Shown: positions 56,847 to 62,755, numbered from the stretch's first letter. The stretch: DNA of 64,000 bases from Gammaproteobacteria bacterium (GCA_028284465.1 JANQRR010000015.1:17286-81285), one strand, 5' to 3'. Numbers and translations: made by a program. Notes: generated by a model from the sequence alone, not told the origin.

Positions 56847-58862
56847 TTAAGGTTTTGTGCTCAGATTGATGATCAGCGGTTGTTCAAGCTTACCCATTCG
56901 TTGCCAAACAAGTTGCTGACTTGCTACAACAATGCCATAGCTTGGTGAAATTCGCGTGGGTTCGATTGTCATTTGCCAATCAGCCACATTATGCCACTGC
57001 AATCTAAAAGGTTTGTGGTTTTTAATTAATTCAATAATGCCATTATCAATAATATTGATATTTACACCAGGTGCTAAATGTAACGGAATTCGCAGATGAT
57101 GTTCACCTACACCACTAAATTCATCTTTAATCATTAATTGATGCAGTTGATGATCTAATTTAAGAGTGCGTTTGAGGGTAACTGGTTTAGGTAAACGTTG
57201 GTAACCGGTATGCGAGCCAATAAAAATAGTATGTTGTTGAGTGGTTTCCCAATGCTGAACTATAGGCTTAGCGTCATAGTGTAAATGCCAAAGATGGCGT
57301 TCATCAATAAAGCGATTAATTTCTGCATGGTCCACTTGTGGAGTATTGTGATAAGCAGTCGATCGAAAAAGATTACGATCACTTGGTGATGCAGTATAAA
57401 CATAAGCACCGCAATCGCTGATCAATAATTCATGATCGAGCATGGCTGCAAATGCTAAACAATCATTATGGCCATGGCCGCCGCGACCGGCTAAACCAAT
57501 CGGCCCGCAGTCAATAAATACATGATCGCAATCATTTTGCATAATATAAAAACCACCTTGTTCGAAAGCAATTGATTGTGGCATGATAGTTTGCTCAGAG
57601 GTGGATGATGTTGCAGCAGCTTCACCTAGCCACCAAAATAATTCATTCGCATTAGCAGTGCCAATAGCTTGTAATGTAGGATCATTAAAAGTATGGCCAA
57701 CTAAGCCGCAGAGGTAACGGTGATCTGTTAAAGCTTGATCGCCAAAAGCTAAGGTGCGAGCATCATCAGCATCACCCCATAATGGTGTGCTGCCATCACA
57801 ACGTGAATACGCTTTGGTAAAATATGCCATATTGATCAAGCGTTGCTGATATTGTTCACTGATCGGCAATTGTTGCGCCTGGCGATATAACGCTGGTAAT
57901 AAAAATAACTCTAATACCAAGCGATGATAAGCAATTGATGCTTCGTAATCGACACCATCAGCAAATACTTGCAATTCAATTTCAGTTGTTAAAATATGCC
58001 ATCCAAGTTGTTGCCAACGTTGCGCAGTTTTGCTGGTATTAAAAAACAATCCCGCGACAACTAAACCGGCGGCATCGGCGGTATAGTGATTTCCGTTAAC
58101 ATCGGATTGTTCTAAATGTTTAGCAGTAAATTCTGCATGTAAAAATAAGCTTTGCAGAAATTGGGTTTGAAAAGCAGGATCTTGCCAAGCAGGGCTTGCA
58201 TTAAATACTTGAAATAGCCATGTCCAAGTGATGATCCGCAAAGCGACTTCCATAGTGCAAGCCCAATTGACACTATAAGCATAAGGGTTTTGTACAATCC
58301 AATCAGCAATGATATCTTTAGCTGCTTGTGAATAGCGCTCATCATGCGTTAATAAATAAGCTTGGCCAAGTGGCATAAGCCATTGCATGCGAGAGATCTC
58401 CCACGGAATTTTAATATCACTGGCATCCTCAAAATTACAGATAGTGATATCAGCAAAAAATTTTGGTTGCCAGCGTACGTTAGTTTTATAATCTCGATGC
58501 CAATCAATTCGTTCGCCTAGATCAATTAATCCAGTGCCTAGCAAATCAACTTTATGAGCTAATGCAAGTTCAGCTTTGGCAACAATAGTAGTGCTTGCTT
58601 GAGGGAATCGGTCGCTAAATTGCTGGCAATCATTGGCAGAGATAACAGCAGGGTAAGGTTGCTTTGCTAAGGTTTGCCATAAAGTGGCAAGATCAGGCAG
58701 GTTGGTAGCTTGCAGTAAATATTTTAAATTAAATTTAGTAGCATAACGTGGTGCATAATAGCGCTCAAATTGAATGCGACTTTCTTGATAGAGTCGTTTA
58801 GCAATAATATGCGGTGGTTTACGTAATCCACGTTTGATTTTTTTGAGCAGATTATATGGCAT
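56847..58862 (-). CDS. Heparinase II/III-like protein, 671 aa, paralogue of 45225-47291.
   Basis: Shares W.CNMDV.LRIV.W / WACTMEVALRII.W, GG.YESS.SYH / YEASIAYH, HGH.D blocks with the 688-aa copy. Confidence 0.7.
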   Translation of the reverse strand: MPYNLLKKIKRGLRKPPHIIAKRLYQESRIQFERYYAPRYATKFNLKYLLQATNLPDLATLWQTLAKQPYPAVISANDCQQFSDRFPQASTTIVAKAELALAHKVDLLGTGLIDLGERIDWHRDYKTNVRWQPKFFADITICNFEDASDIKIPWEISRMQWLMPLGQAYLLTHDERYSQAAKDIIADWIVQNPYAYSVNWACTMEVALRIITWTWLFQVFNASPAWQDPAFQTQFLQSLFLHAEFTAKHLEQSDVNGNHYTADAAGLVVAGLFFNTSKTAQRWQQLGWHILTTEIELQVFADGVDYEASIAYHRLVLELFLLPALYRQAQQLPISEQYQQRLINMAYFTKAYSRCDGSTPLWGDADDARTLAFGDQALTDHRYLCGLVGHTFNDPTLQAIGTANANELFWWLGEAAATSSTSEQTIMPQSIAFEQGGFYIMQNDCDHVFIDCGPIGLAGRGGHGHNDCLAFAAMLDHELLISDCGAYVYTASPSDRNLFRSTAYHNTPQVDHAEINRFIDERHLWHLHYDAKPIVQHWETTQQHTIFIGSHTGYQRLPKPVTLKRTLKLDHQLHQLMIKDEFSGVGEHHLRIPLHLAPGVNINIIDNGIIELIKNHKPFRLQWHNVADWQMTIEPTRISPSYGIVVASQQLVWQRMGKLEQPLIINLSTKP

Positions 58863-58964
58863 AGTGTATGTTATAAAAAAGTCCAGTTATTTGCAAATTG
58901 TTAGGTGTTTGAGGTGCTTTGTTATGCTACAATTGCCGCAAATTGAGTTCATGGGCCAAAATCA

Positions 58965-61097: not shown

Positions 61098-62755
61098 CAA
61101 AATATCGCAAAACTTGTGGACGCTATTTACGCACAGTTAAACATTTGCAAGCTCGTCAGATCTACAAGCGAATTCAATATAAAATATCACGGCCTCGACC
61201 TGATTGTCGACCACCACCACAATTACGTGCTTATGCTGGCACATGGCAAACATCAATCGCTAAAAAACCAAGTTATATACCGCCAGCAACCATGACATTA
61301 CTCAATGAAACTCATGAGATCAGTGCACAAACCATTTGGAATGATCCTGAATTAGCATTATTATGGCGTTATCACTTACATTATTTCGATGATTTGCAAG
61401 CAACTAACGCGGCAGAAAAAATCACTGAACATCAAACATTAATTAAACGCTGGATAAGGGAAAATCCTCCTGGTATTGGTTGTGGTTGGCAATCGTATCC
61501 ATTGTCATTGCGAATTGTTAATTGGATAAAGTGGTTGCTAACGGGTAATCTAGCAACAAAAGCTATGCGGCATAGTTTAAGCGTGCAAGTGTGTTATTTG
61601 CGTAGACGTTTAGAATATCATTTGCTAGGAAATCATTTATTAGCAAATGCAAAAGCATTAATTTTCGCAGGTTGTTATTTTCAAGGTAAAGAAGCAGATC
61701 ATTGGTTAAATTTGGGTTTGAAAATCTATCAACGTCAGTTGCGCGAACAAATTCTTGCAGATGGCGGCCACTTTGAACGTAGCCCAATGTATCATAGCCT
61801 GATCCTTGAAGATTTACTTGATGTTATTAATGTATTACACACATATGCGTTGCCAACGCCAGATTATTTATGTCAATCGATCAATGCGATGTTTACTTGG
61901 TTGCAAGCTATGATCCATCCCGATGGGGAGATTGCATTTTTTAATGATTCAACCTTACAGCAAGCACCAACCTTCGCAGAATTGTTAGCCTATGCTAAGC
62001 AATTGGGTAGCCAACCTAAGTTAACGCCAATTTCACCGGCAACGACGTTAGCTCAGACAGGTTTTGTACGAGTAGCACTTGATAGTAATGTATTATTATT
62101 AGATACCGGATCTGTAGGGCCAGCATATTTACCCGGGCATGCACATGCTGGAACATTATCATTTGAATTATCATTAGCGAAACAACGAGTTTTAGTAAAC
62201 TCTGGTACGTCATGTTATCAGCTAAATACATTGCGTGCTTATCAGCGTAGTACTGCTGCGCATAATACTTTAAGTATCGATGGTGAAAATTCTTCTGAAG
62301 TTTGGCATCGATTTCGAGTTGGACGACGTGCGCGAGTTTTTGCAGTTAATGTAGAGCACAATCAAGATGATACGGTTGTTGTGGAGGCAACACATAATGG
62401 CTATCAACATTTGGGTAATGTTATCCATCACCGTCGTTGGCGTGTCAGTGCTGATGAGATGGAAATTAGCGATGAAATTACCGGTGAGGGTGTGCATGAT
62501 GTGCGCTTATGGTATCATCTGCATCCTACATGTAAGGTAGCGCAAATTAAAGGAAATACGGTGATAATTACCACAACATTAGCAAGTGATCGGCATATCG
62601 TTATGGTGTTACCTGAAGATGTTGACATTTCTGTGCAACCTAGCGAATACTATCCCCAATTTGGTGTAGCGGTAGCTAATCAAACTATTGTTGGGGTAAC
62701 GAAAACTCAGTTGCCATATAGCATGATAACAGCAATAACATGGAAACAGCAGTGA
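61091..62755 (+). CDS. Heparinase II/III-like protein, short form (554 aa).
   Basis: WRYHLHYFDDL, SLRIVNWIKW, GGHFERSPMYH, PGHAHAGTLSFEL match the family blocks seen in the other two copies. Confidence 0.65.
   Translation: MLTKYRKTCGRYLRTVKHLQARQIYKRIQYKISRPRPDCRPPPQLRAYAGTWQTSIAKKPSYIPPATMTLLNETHEISAQTIWNDPELALLWRYHLHYFDDLQATNAAEKITEHQTLIKRWIRENPPGIGCGWQSYPLSLRIVNWIKWLLTGNLATKAMRHSLSVQVCYLRRRLEYHLLGNHLLANAKALIFAGCYFQGKEADHWLNLGLKIYQRQLREQILADGGHFERSPMYHSLILEDLLDVINVLHTYALPTPDYLCQSINAMFTWLQAMIHPDGEIAFFNDSTLQQAPTFAELLAYAKQLGSQPKLTPISPATTLAQTGFVRVALDSNVLLLDTGSVGPAYLPGHAHAGTLSFELSLAKQRVLVNSGTSCYQLNTLRAYQRSTAAHNTLSIDGENSSEVWHRFRVGRRARVFAVNVEHNQDDTVVVEATHNGYQHLGNVIHHRRWRVSADEMEISDEITGEGVHDVRLWYHLHPTCKVAQIKGNTVIITTTLASDRHIVMVLPEDVDISVQPSEYYPQFGVAVANQTIVGVTKTQLPYSMITAITWKQQ

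Follow-up and report, generated by a model that had tools for sequence, protein, structure and literature searches.

Gene content and layout of the locus

Why would a bacterium carry three heparinase-like genes, all within 18 kb, beside two bi-domain oxidoreductase genes? We addressed this question in a 64,000-nucleotide stretch from a Gammaproteobacteria bacterium (GCA_028284465.1, JANQRR010000015.1:17286-81285; hereafter the window), in which the first-pass annotation had read positions 56847-62755 as the second copy of a duplicated cassette. ORF and Pfam analysis placed the ORFs, their domains, the 7-nt overlap of ORB710 with hep554 and the downstream GT4 gene as that annotation had them. 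However, the region is part of a ~42-kb ABC-transporter-type O-polysaccharide locus around N-acetyl-hexosaminuronic acids, and this locus holds two conserved biosynthetic gene sets and no duplicated cassette. The features are as follows:

22147-43210: remaining polysaccharide locus, precursor supply and export genes (Pfam/NCBIfam)
22147-23313 and 34155-35273: UDP-GlcNAc 2-epimerases
25621-26829 and 36767-38128: UDP-sugar dehydrogenases
30199-32269: two SDR genes
43214-45217, minus strand: asparagine-synthase-like glutamine amidotransferase (Pfam/NCBIfam; likely start MCG at 45217)
45225-47291, minus strand: hep688, third heparinase III-like protein (Pfam), 688 aa, rare lineage
47288-50035, minus strand: GT4 fused to a SAM methyltransferase (GT4-MT; Pfam), likely ATG at 50035 (915 aa)
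50028-52313, minus strand: ORA761, second bi-domain oxidoreductase (Pfam), 761 aa from the shared MKQ start
52417-56834, plus strand: unrelated block (Pfam) of a truncated P-type ATPase, a cupredoxin protein and a 685-aa Lys-rich protein without family
56847-58862, minus strand: hep671, second-clade heparinase III-like protein, cytoplasmic, 671 aa
58863-58964: divergent hep671-ORB710 intergenic region, 102 bp
58965-61097, plus strand: ORB710, bi-domain oxidoreductase, ZbdP/GnlA-like, 710 aa
61091-62755, plus strand: hep554, cytoplasmic heparinase III (PL12)-like protein, HepP/GnlB-like, 554 aa, translationally coupled to ORB710
62752-64000, plus strand: GT4 glycosyltransferase (WcaI/WbuB-like), GTG start, continuing past the window end

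The segment at 22147-43210 encodes 2 UDP-GlcNAc 2-epimerases, 2 UDP-sugar 6-dehydrogenases, WbpB/D/E-like proteins, 2 SDRs, 2 more AsnSyn-like amidotransferases, one GT4, Wzm/Wzt and one methyltransferase. The mechanical ORF of ORA761 reaches 52400, while the MKQ start shared with ORB710 lies at 52313; start analysis has the mechanical ORF of GT4-MT beginning at a GTG at 50224. Overlaps of 4 nt join hep554 to GT4 and GT4-MT to hep688. A promoter and terminator scan of 52000-64000 gave signals no higher than the shuffled expectation. The amidotransferase at 43214-45217 probably serves in uronic acid amidation.

Conserved synteny defines two gene sets

ORB710, hep554 and GT4 form a conserved module, which is cassette B proper. 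Across 80 genomes from many phyla, an ORB-type gene lay within 4 kb upstream in 43/56, and a GT4 gene followed the hep554-type gene immediately in 59/66 loci, 45 of them with a GT4 at least 40% identical to that of the window. A UDP-GlcNAc 2-epimerase gene was nearby in 24/38 hep554-type loci, often along with a UDP-sugar dehydrogenase gene. The window GT4 matches Pfam GT4, scores 155.8 bits against the NCBIfam WcaI family (under the cut-off), and is 49.8% identical to its counterpart in L087, an E. coli IncC plasmid locus that carries wecB-wecC...hep-GT4 without the oxidoreductase. The latter arrangement is consistent with separable roles for the heparinase-like protein and the oxidoreductase. 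The module also occurs in Wzy/Wzx-type loci, with Wzy_C in L001 and an O-antigen polymerase in L087.

Although hep671 adjoins ORB710, and had been grouped with it, synteny joins it to ORA761, GT4-MT and hep688, the set with which it functionally goes. In metagenomes the string hep-ORA-(GT4-methyltransferase)-hep-amidotransferase recurs, with hep-ORA-GT4MT-hep on the same strand, and orthologues of hep671 adjoin ORA-type oxidoreductases in L001, L084 and L085. A GT4-MT gene (orthologues 41-51% identical) lay directly 5' of the hep688-type gene in 40/45 metagenomic loci, ORA lay upstream in 32/33, a second heparinase-like gene was found in 16/23, and an AsnSyn homologue, 58-66% identical, followed the hep688-type gene in 16/25. 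Metagenomic ORA761 orthologues whose genes immediately precede a GT4-MT gene are 52-61% identical, and the one in L084 is 48% identical; L084 is arranged as hep, ORA, GT4-MT-hep fusion and Wzm/Wzt. The GT4-MT and heparinase-like genes read as one frame in 17/52 pairs, and P0366, P0373 and P0367 are fusions of GT4, SAM-methyltransferase and heparinase-like domains, which places the heparinase-like domain with cytoplasmic glycan-building enzymes. In the window, the 4.4-kb unrelated block splits the hep-ORA string; L084 and L096-L167 have no such block at the corresponding place.

Sequence divergence likewise contradicts a duplicated cassette. The two oxidoreductases are collinear, as the first-pass annotation stated, aligning end to end at 35% identity (E 3e-135), and the heparinase-like proteins are 26-30% identical to each other, whereas closer relatives of both families, at 43-62% identity, reside in distant phyla (43-59% for the heparinase-like orthologues). 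Homologues of hep671 are 50-59% identical across phyla; hep688 has only three representatives, at 43-48%, its next matches including GT4-MTase-hep and MTase-hep fusions. The proteins hep671, hep554 and hep688 belong to three separate sequence clusters that differ in their conserved gene neighbourhoods, and on their sequences these clusters diverged anciently, which makes the earlier suggestion of different epimerisation specificities a reasonable one. Each protein spans 94-100% of the homologue length and frameshifts are absent, confirming real, intact paralogues in an O-antigen-type polysaccharide locus. The further claim that three copies are unusual stands in part: none of the ±10-kb windows examined held three heparinase-like genes, but every type is abundant (more than 2000 to more than 8000 matches, in a superfamily of 12,242 representative clusters), and at least two occur in 5/38 hep554-type and 16/23 hep688-type loci. 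Taken together, the three heparinase-like and two oxidoreductase genes belong, all intact, to gene sets of surface-polysaccharide loci that are widespread and little characterised, and the present example is ordinary.

The heparinase-like proteins retain the PL12 active site and lack export signals

Pfam recognised Hepar_II_III_N and Hepar_II_III_C in hep671 (E 6e-37/2e-36) and hep554 (E 9e-19/7e-54), the latter being ~100 N-terminal residues shorter than hep671 and hep688. The best PDB matches were to heparinase III (4MMH, E 7e-25 for hep671 and 2e-11 for hep688), and the PL12-type fold, an (alpha/alpha) toroid with an antiparallel beta-sandwich, is present. In heparinase III, Tyr294 and His424 are catalytic and Asn240 acts as neutraliser (PMC12088678). 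Equivalents of the PL12 Asn/Tyr/His are N181/Y234/H350 in hep554, while the catalytic equivalents are N258/Y312/H313/H463/H465 in hep671, kept in 119-120 of 120 sequences, and N268/Y322/H323/H473/H475 in hep688, also conserved. Alignment thus finds the Tyr/His/Asn residues retained in all three copies, and they are invariant or nearly so among 120, 120 and 151 relatives of the three proteins, contrary to the proposal of regulatory pseudo-enzymes.

Inspection of hep671, hep554 and hep688 revealed no N-terminal hydrophobic signal peptide, and all three fall far below the thresholds of the NCBIfam HepC equivalogs NF045573/NF045572 (700 and 600 bits), scoring 112.6, 55 and 62.9 bits. Because the catalytic residues are kept, signal peptides are absent and fusion with a cytoplasmic GT4-MT is frequent in the hep688 type, we regard these proteins as neither pseudo-enzymes nor secreted lyases. 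Their lyase-like fold and Tyr/His active site are also what a dermatan-sulfate-epimerase-type enzyme would be expected to have; sequence by itself cannot separate lyase from epimerase.

The oxidoreductases combine two redox domains

ORB710 matches Pfam ADH_N/ADH_zinc_N and GFO_IDH_MocA (+C), with GxGxxG motifs at 174 and 403. Its N-terminal MDR half is without zinc ligands, 'SAGTE' and 'GYC' replacing the Zn-binding Cys/His motifs, and its C-terminal GFO/IDH/MocA half bears an EKP motif (at 488). Homologues 58-62% identical are named 'bi-domain-containing oxidoreductase'. In Foldseek searches with the AF2 model (pLDDT 80.5), the N-half matched alcohol dehydrogenases, while the C-half matched PmdC, GenD2, KanD2, levoglucosan dehydrogenase and an NAD-dependent glycoside hydrolase, the last four of which oxidise C3 of pyranosides.

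Comparison with known systems

ORB710 and hep554 resemble ZbdP-HepP of P. aeruginosa PA14, a strain that we take to be of serotype O10 with zbdP-hepP inside its O-antigen cluster. Like the window genes with their 7-nt overlap, PA14_23420/PA14_23430 consist of an oxidoreductase gene then a heparinase-like gene at tight spacing, forming an operon 8 bp apart (PMC5732420). ORB710 fits the description of ZbdP (78 kDa, MDR (BchC/Tdh-like) N-half and Gfo/Idh/MocA C-half), and hep554 that of HepP (61.9 kDa, Hepar_II_III N and C domains, no export signal). That study, in which O-antigen is nowhere mentioned, interprets HepP as a virulence factor with heparinase activity (PMC5732420). The window pair also differs in lying in an ABC-transporter-type locus beside a second, distinct oxidoreductase/heparinase-like set.

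Likewise, an adjacent two-domain dehydrogenase and Hepar_II_III_C/PL12 protein, WeeE/WeeF, are found in Acinetobacter venetianus RAG-1, whose wee cluster, like the loci related to the window, also includes weeA/weeB, genes for a UDP-GlcNAc 2-epimerase and a UDP-ManNAc dehydrogenase. WeeE/WeeF are the GnlA/GnlB of A. baumannii K loci and are postulated for UDP-L-GalNAcA (PMC9676051). A 2026 Acinetobacter preprint describes GnlA as ADH_N plus GFO-like two-domain and GnlB as Hepar_II_III_C/PL12 with 4FNV as best PDB match, and its author takes the heparinase fold of GnlB as 'suggesting a different functional role', one other than making sugars (10.64898/2026.07.20.739706). Those are single pairs in Wzy-dependent capsule loci, where function is postulated only. 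The window presents the same co-oriented ~710-aa MDR plus GFO/IDH/MocA protein and ~550-aa Hepar_II_III protein, in a surface-polysaccharide setting that includes genes for UDP-GlcNAc 2-epimerase and UDP-ManNAc dehydrogenase, with a GT4 gene coming next. Since both systems were compared by description, it is protein size, domain layout and genetic context that support equivalence; P. aeruginosa and Acinetobacter names were absent among the best 120 matches listed for hep554 and for ORB710.

More distant systems differ in kind. Heparinase III is secreted and serves in degradation, whereas the window proteins, 19-20% identical to the PL12 structures 4MMH, 4FNV and 5JMD, are cytoplasmic and stand in a biosynthetic context. 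An ABC transporter exports the Bordetella O-antigen, part of which is amidated, and the polysaccharide of the window locus appears to be alike in both respects. For WbmF/WbmG/WbmH of Bordetella the net change proposed is again from a D-manno uronic acid to the 3,5-epimer of L-galacto configuration, in an O-antigen pathway and with two redox activities and one proton-exchange activity (PMC2279256); however, all three are SDR-fold proteins, so the likeness is analogy and not homology, and the window has two SDRs of its own. Dermatan-sulfate epimerase 1 (6HZN; PMC8006597) is a eukaryotic Golgi enzyme, 13% identical, that takes long chondroitin chains as substrate and has no partner oxidoreductase.

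Proposed function and alternative explanations

Most likely, the heparinase-like genes and oxidoreductases invert sugar stereochemistry in synthesis and do not degrade heparin. L-galacto is the 3,5-epimer of D-manno (PMC2279256), and L-GalNAcA is present in P. aeruginosa O10/O19 and V. vulnificus glycans (PMC11200240). Set B (ORB710, hep554 and GT4), with UDP-GlcNAc 2-epimerase and UDP-ManNAc dehydrogenase, would most likely convert a D-ManNAcA unit to an L-galacto unit (L-GalNAcA type), which the WbuB-like GT4 would install; set A (hep671, ORA761, GT4-MT, hep688 and an amidotransferase) would perform related chemistry on the growing polymer. The Tyr/His pair and Asn neutraliser of the heparinase-III-like protein would take off and re-add the C5 proton beside the carboxyl, epimerising C5 while leaving the chain intact, in the manner of dermatan-sulfate epimerase. 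The bi-domain oxidoreductase would invert a ring hydroxyl, most likely at C3, its GFO/IDH/MocA half oxidising the hydroxyl and its zinc-less MDR half reducing from the opposite face. This explanation as a whole, two conserved sets carrying out C5 epimerisation and C3 redox inversion from D-manno to L-galacto uronic acids, seems to us somewhat better than an even bet. Gene content, conserved synteny, fold, catalytic residues, the lack of an N-terminal signal and the fusions to cytoplasmic enzymes are direct observations, from which we infer the substrates, the regiochemistry and the acceptor level (UDP-sugar versus lipid-linked glycan or polymer). With its WbpA/B/D/E-type genes the window has, in addition, a route to 2,3-diacetamido uronic acids; since the C3 acetamido group of such sugars is not oxidisable, at least one set must act on another residue or with other regiochemistry. 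We know of no demonstrated epimerase activity for any enzyme of the heparinase-like family, and the sole biochemical report on it claims heparin degradation by HepP from a plate assay (PMC5732420).

The same D-manno to L-galacto outcome could be reached by the logic of the Bordetella Wbm proteins, in which one oxidoreductase domain oxidises C4, the lyase-like protein swaps the C3 and C5 protons of a 4-keto intermediate and the other redox domain reduces C4. King et al. proposed two redox enzymes and one non-redox epimerase for UDP-D-ManNAc3NAcA to UDP-L-GalNAc3NAcA (PMC2279256). Two redox domains and one acid/base enzyme fit that three-activity scheme, which also suits the 2,3-diacetamido sugars that the window WbpA/B/D/E-like genes could make. 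We nevertheless judge it unlikely, as the closest sugar-acting structural neighbours of the GFO half are C3 dehydrogenases, heparinase-like genes without an oxidoreductase (hep-GT4 in L087; gnlB alone in KL215) are incompatible with strict 4-keto dependence, and the two SDR genes at 30199-32269 could supply a Wbm-type route alone.

Somewhat less probable still is that these are true cytoplasmic beta-eliminating lyases that cut or terminate a nascent uronic-acid polymer, the enoyl-reductase-like MDR domain reducing the 4,5-unsaturated end for chain-length control or as a 4-deoxy terminal cap. The full lyase catalytic set is kept, and zinc-less MDRs include enoyl reductases. In addition, ABC-transporter-type loci, where chain length is set by terminal modification, contain fusions of hep688-type proteins with GT4-methyltransferases. 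However, the ORB-hep554-GT4 module also occurs in Wzy/Wzx-type loci, where repeat units are assembled singly and there is no cytoplasmic polymer to cleave, and the window Wzt is short (251 aa, ABC_tran its sole Pfam match) compared with the 578-aa Wzt with Wzt_C in L084. Clearing of heparin by rHepP was reported in a plate assay (PMC5732420), but the literature ties the genes to the monosaccharide L-GalNAcA and not to chain length.

Degradative heparinases or alginate lyases, acting in nutrient acquisition or as a host-glycosaminoglycan-degrading virulence factor as proposed for HepP, are very improbable. Pfam and NCBI names and the heparinase III matches in the PDB favour them, as do the virulence phenotypes of the hepP mutant and the plate-assay activity (PMC5732420). 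Nevertheless, signal peptides are absent, reportedly in HepP too, and HepC scores of 55-113 bits fall far under the 600-700 cut-offs; export in a glycosaminoglycan-utilisation context, as for PL12 HepC, was not found, the genes always lying within polysaccharide-synthesis loci beside glycosyltransferases and sometimes fused to them. The pellicle, biofilm and worm-killing phenotypes of hepP could stem from O-antigen loss. Lineage-specific duplication followed by decay of at least one copy into an inactive pseudo-enzyme or regulator, suggested by three similar-looking genes in 18 kb and the rarity of the hep688 lineage, is hardly credible, being already contradicted by the lower identity between copies than to orthologues elsewhere, the full-length ORFs, the catalytic residues in all three and their separate clusters.

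Implications

Returning to the preferred reading of C5 epimerisation with redox inversion, its broadest form may hold, at a little short of an even chance: cytoplasmic heparinase-III-like proteins of polysaccharide loci would be biosynthetic uronic-acid C5-epimerases, a very large family spread across bacteria and archaea, acting on lipid-linked or nascent glycans, paired with a bi-domain oxidise-then-reduce epimerase in a route from D-manno to L-gulo/L-galacto hexosaminuronic acids, as prokaryotic counterparts of dermatan-sulfate epimerase. If so, this route would be previously uncharacterised, its C5-epimerase would sometimes be physically fused to the polymerising GT4-methyltransferase, and P. 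aeruginosa HepP, published as a 'heparinase', would be an O-antigen enzyme.

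Results

Genes of the heparinase-like region

The stretch from position 22147 to the end of the window is an ABC-transporter-type polysaccharide locus based on amino-uronic acids. Its precursor genes are two WecB-type UDP-GlcNAc 2-epimerases and two UDP-sugar 6-dehydrogenases, joined by a WbpB/WbpD/WbpE-like dehydrogenase, acetyltransferase and aminotransferase, two SDR epimerase/reductases, Wzm/Wzt for export, methyltransferases and at least four GT4 glycosyltransferases. There are three asparagine-synthase-like glutamine amidotransferases (26820-28721, 32230-34179 and 43214-45217), as many as there are heparinase-like genes. 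Upstream of the locus, positions 5000-16050 hold very large ORFs (1794 and 719 aa) as well as an ankyrin-repeat protein of 890 aa; together with an overall G+C of 30-42%, these hint at a host-associated, Legionellales-like organism.

Features of the heparinase-like region (coordinates, strand, description)
43214-45217, minus, amidotransferase; likely start at the MCG motif, 45217 (mechanical ORF 43214-45247)
45225-47291, minus, hep688, third heparinase-like gene (Pfam)
47288-50035, minus, GT4-MT, GT4 glycosyltransferase fused to a SAM methyltransferase; likely start ATG 50035, 8-nt overlap with ORA761 (mechanical ORF 47288-50224)
50028-52313, minus, ORA761, bi-domain oxidoreductase, 761 aa from the MKQ start common to ORB710 (mechanical ORF 50028-52400)
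52417-56834, plus, 4.4-kb block unrelated to glycan synthesis
56847-58862, minus, hep671, heparinase-like, 671 aa; Pfam Hepar_II_III_N and Hepar_II_III_C
58965-61097, plus, ORB710, bi-domain oxidoreductase, 710 aa; Pfam ADH_N/ADH_zinc_N and GFO_IDH_MocA
61091-62755, plus, hep554, heparinase-like, 554 aa, 7-nt overlap with ORB710; Pfam Hepar_II_III_N and Hepar_II_III_C
62752 to past the window end, plus, WbuB-like GT4 glycosyltransferase

ORF coordinates and Pfam matches confirmed the ORF positions noted in the first-pass annotation, along with the gene overlap and the downstream GT4. The mechanical ORF starts of GT4-MT, the amidotransferase and ORA761 probably lie too far upstream. A promoter and terminator scan of 52000-64000 gave counts no better than those of shuffled sequence.

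The first-pass annotation had also regarded ORB710, hep671 and hep554 as the second copy of a duplicated cassette. ORA761 and ORB710 aligned end to end at 35% identity, hep671 and hep688 were 30% identical, and hep554 was 26% identical to each of these two. Relatives elsewhere were much closer: 58-62% identity for ORB710 (NCBI name 'bi-domain-containing oxidoreductase'), 50-59% for hep671 (>2000 proteins from Gammaproteobacteria, Acidobacteriota, Bacillota and Alphaproteobacteria) and 43-50% for hep554 (>8000 proteins, including those of Laribacter, Deltaproteobacteria and candidate-phyla bacteria). The hep688 lineage is rare, with only three representatives at 43-48% identity. When 80-odd heparinase-like proteins encoded in the retrieved loci were clustered, the three window proteins fell into three separate clusters. 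With 26-35% identity within the window as opposed to these closer relatives, the duplicated copy was not borne out.

Conserved gene order defines two sets

We scanned metagenomes with a hep688-family alignment, recovering 462 relatives, and mapped the window proteins onto their loci. A same-strand string recurred. It opened with a heparinase-like gene that resembled hep671 most (37-42% identity to the window protein), followed by an ORA-type oxidoreductase (52-61%), GT4-MT (41-51%, at times in two copies) and a hep688-type gene (32-50%), after which Wzm/Wzt, an amidotransferase (58-66% identity) and another GT4 were often found. In 40/45 of these metagenomic loci GT4-MT immediately preceded the hep688-type gene; ORA was upstream in 32/33, and a second heparinase-like gene was present in 16/23. 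The GT4-MT and heparinase-like frames were continuous in 17 of 52 metagenomic pairs, and single chains joined GT4, SAM methyltransferase and heparinase-like protein (~1430-1540 aa) or methyltransferase and heparinase-like protein (958 aa). These fusions were seen at L084 3444-7733 and in library proteins P0366, P0373 and P0367, the three-part chains of the library being ~1539 aa long. In L084, a hep671 orthologue (53%) stood beside an ORA orthologue (48%), the GT4-MT-hep fusion and Wzm/Wzt, while in Hydrogenophaga (L001) and locus L085 hep671 orthologues accompanied an ORA-type oxidoreductase and an amidotransferase.

On the minus strand of the window the order is hep671, the 4.4-kb plus-strand block, ORA761, GT4-MT, hep688 and the amidotransferase. 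Taken together, the metagenomic string and this order define a set A of hep671, ORA761, GT4-MT, hep688 and the amidotransferase, and a set B of ORB710, hep554 and the GT4. The oxidoreductase partner of hep671 is thus ORA761 and not, as first annotated, ORB710. Judged by the conserved string, the block at 52417-56834 breaks set A between hep671 and ORA761. It encodes a truncated P-type ATPase (534 aa, E1-E2 ATPase domain only, no hydrolase domain), a 210-aa cupredoxin protein in which Cupredoxin_1 matches twice, and a lysine-rich protein of 685 aa that has no Pfam match and forms a singleton cluster. The metagenomic string favors a plain insertion of this block into a collinear operon, but the hep671 orthologue of L084 is divergent from ORA rather than in tandem with it, which indicates that local inversions also happen and led us to reject the plain insertion.

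For set B, a hep554-family alignment was scanned against one genome per species, yielding >591 relatives, of which 80 loci were kept for counts. In 43/56 of these an ORB-type oxidoreductase gene, co-oriented and no more than 4 kb away, preceded the hep554-type gene, and a GT4 lay directly downstream in 59/66, 45 of which were at least 40% identical to the window GT4. UDP-GlcNAc 2-epimerase was found in 24 of 38 full-context loci, and a UDP-sugar dehydrogenase or amidotransferase was also often there. Amidotransferase genes were commonly near both module types elsewhere.

E. coli plasmid pCRE10.2 (L087; NZ_CP034402.1 57180-76763) carries an IS26-bounded wecB-wecC-DUF2837-polymerase-GT-hep-GT4 fragment, whose hep and GT4 are 41.6% and 49.8% identical to those of the window; the oxidoreductase is absent from this fragment. 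The IS26-flanked fragment, which also encodes a nucleotidyltransferase and in which the hep554-type gene is annotated 'alginate lyase family protein', occurs on conjugative plasmids of the IncC type in E. coli, Enterobacter hormaechei and Citrobacter. This partial polysaccharide locus amounts to a surface-glycan module that is mobile. Homologues of hep554 (26-30% identity, 'alginate lyase family') were also found on megaplasmids of Haloarcula, Halobellus and Haladaptatus (plasmid hits H12-H18), extending the heparinase-like family into Archaea.

Active-site and domain features

The nearest solved structures to the heparinase-like proteins were PL12 heparinase III (4MMH, E 7e-25 for hep671, 3e-11 for hep554 and 2e-11 for hep688), in which Tyr294 and His424 serve as base/acid and Asn240 as neutralizer (PMC12088678). 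In HMMER alignments, with a chain numbering offset of 24 that was consistent at all three sites, the Asn/Tyr/His equivalents were retained in every protein: N258, Y312 (H313) and H463 (H465) in hep671, N181, Y234 (H235) and H350 (H352) in hep554, and N268, Y322 (H323) and H473 (H475) in hep688. The suggestion of regulatory pseudo-enzymes was therefore wrong, while the remainder of the proposed sub-functionalization, namely distinct specificities and epimerization, is plausible.

ORB710 and ORA761 each have a pair of Rossmann motifs (GxGxx[GA]) and also the EKP motif of GFO/IDH/MocA proteins. In the MDR half, 'SAGTE' and 'GYC' stand where zinc-ligand motifs are usual; loss of such motifs in this family suggests a zinc-independent MDR, as may be the case here. 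The oxidoreductase model (pLDDT 80.5) had two confidently folded halves, and no PDB entry spanned both (TM-score on query <=0.39). The N-half resembled alcohol and polyol dehydrogenases, and the C-half PmdC, GenD2, KanD2, levoglucosan dehydrogenase and NAD-dependent glycoside hydrolase. Sugar-acting enzymes among the C-half neighbors oxidize the C3-OH of pyranosides. NAD versus NADP preference was sought from the beta2-end residues of both halves, positions that were not conserved in the alignment.

Discussion

The oxidoreductase-heparinase pair is already described in other bacteria, and the window set is a further member. We take P. aeruginosa PA14 to be serotype O10, with zbdP-hepP inside its O-antigen cluster. 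These two genes form one operon, 8 bp apart, encoding ZbdP (78 kDa, MDR plus Gfo/Idh/MocA) and HepP (61.9 kDa); hepP mutants show biofilm and virulence defects, and Acinetobacter and V. vulnificus were found to have HepP homologues. The study presents HepP as a heparinase virulence factor, and O-antigen is nowhere mentioned in it (PMC5732420). Adjacent weeE/weeF of A. venetianus RAG-1 are postulated for UDP-L-GalNAcA, and in the K loci of A. baumannii they have been given the new names gnlA/gnlB (PMC9676051). In a 2026 preprint GnlA has ADH_N and a GFO-like (GH188) match, its best PDB match covering 40% of its length, and GnlB is Hepar_II_III_C/PL12 with 4FNV as best PDB match (10.64898/2026.07.20.739706). 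Alpha-L-GalNAcA is a constituent of several V. vulnificus glycans and of the O-antigens of P. aeruginosa serotypes O10 and O19 (PMC11200240). zbdP-hepP is built like the gene pair associated with this O10/O19 component, and the hepP mutant phenotypes may reflect an LPS defect. We liken both published pairs to ORB710-hep554 by protein size, domain make-up and gene neighborhood. A literature search found nothing joining heparinase with WbuB, the bi-domain oxidoreductase, asparagine synthase or Coxiella.

Since D-manno and L-galacto are 3,5-epimers (PMC2279256) and the module travels with two UDP-ManNAcA-making genes (WecB/MnaA, WecC/MnaB), the simplest reading is a three-part scheme. The lyase-like protein would take and redeliver the C5 proton beside the carboxyl group; C5 proton abstraction is the first step common to lyases and uronyl C5-epimerases, with DS-epimerase 1 as fold-level precedent (PMC8006597). 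The two-domain oxidoreductase would invert C3, one domain oxidizing and the other reducing, and the L-sugar would then be installed by the WbuB-like GT4. C5 inversion alone would give the L-gulo configuration, and hep-GT4 without the oxidoreductase, as on pCRE10.2 and in KL215, which has gnlB alone (PMC9676051), fits separable steps. For the hep688 type at least, its fusion to GT4-MT suggests nascent or lipid-linked glycan as the substrate. Archaeal Agl32 likewise performs C5 epimerization of lipid-linked glycan before flipping, with an unrelated fold (PMC13308652); its all-helical structure led us to reject it as a homologous precedent. More speculatively, amidotransferase and methyltransferase neighbors could neutralize the carboxylate, easing C5 deprotonation.

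A main weakness of this scheme is that the locus can also make 2,3-diacetamido sugars, whose C3 is not oxidizable; a rival Wbm-like C4-keto route would suit these sugars as well. Another rival is that the proteins are true lyases or terminators in the cytoplasm. A third is the published heparinase reading: recombinant HepP, which has two heparinase domains and no export signal, cleared heparin in a plate assay (PMC5732420). The 2026 preprint took the heparinase fold of GnlB to point to a different role (10.64898/2026.07.20.739706). From the sequence evidence, we consider a biosynthetic C5-epimerase role plausible.

For the window itself, the gain is mainly the corrected partition of gene sets, the locus being a combination of standard modules. 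The significance of the module lies mainly in the size of the family and its probably misleading annotation: most bacterial phyla have the pair, in thousands of genomes altogether, and its usual label of 'heparinase' or 'alginate lyase' leads readers toward degradation or virulence. If these proteins are biosynthetic epimerases, this would explain the origin of L-GalNAcA and related L-uronic acids, epitopes that are common in Pseudomonas, Acinetobacter and Vibrio, both in O-antigens and in capsules; the HepP virulence phenotype would possibly be an O-antigen defect, and the family would offer enzymes for rare L-sugars in glycoconjugate vaccines.
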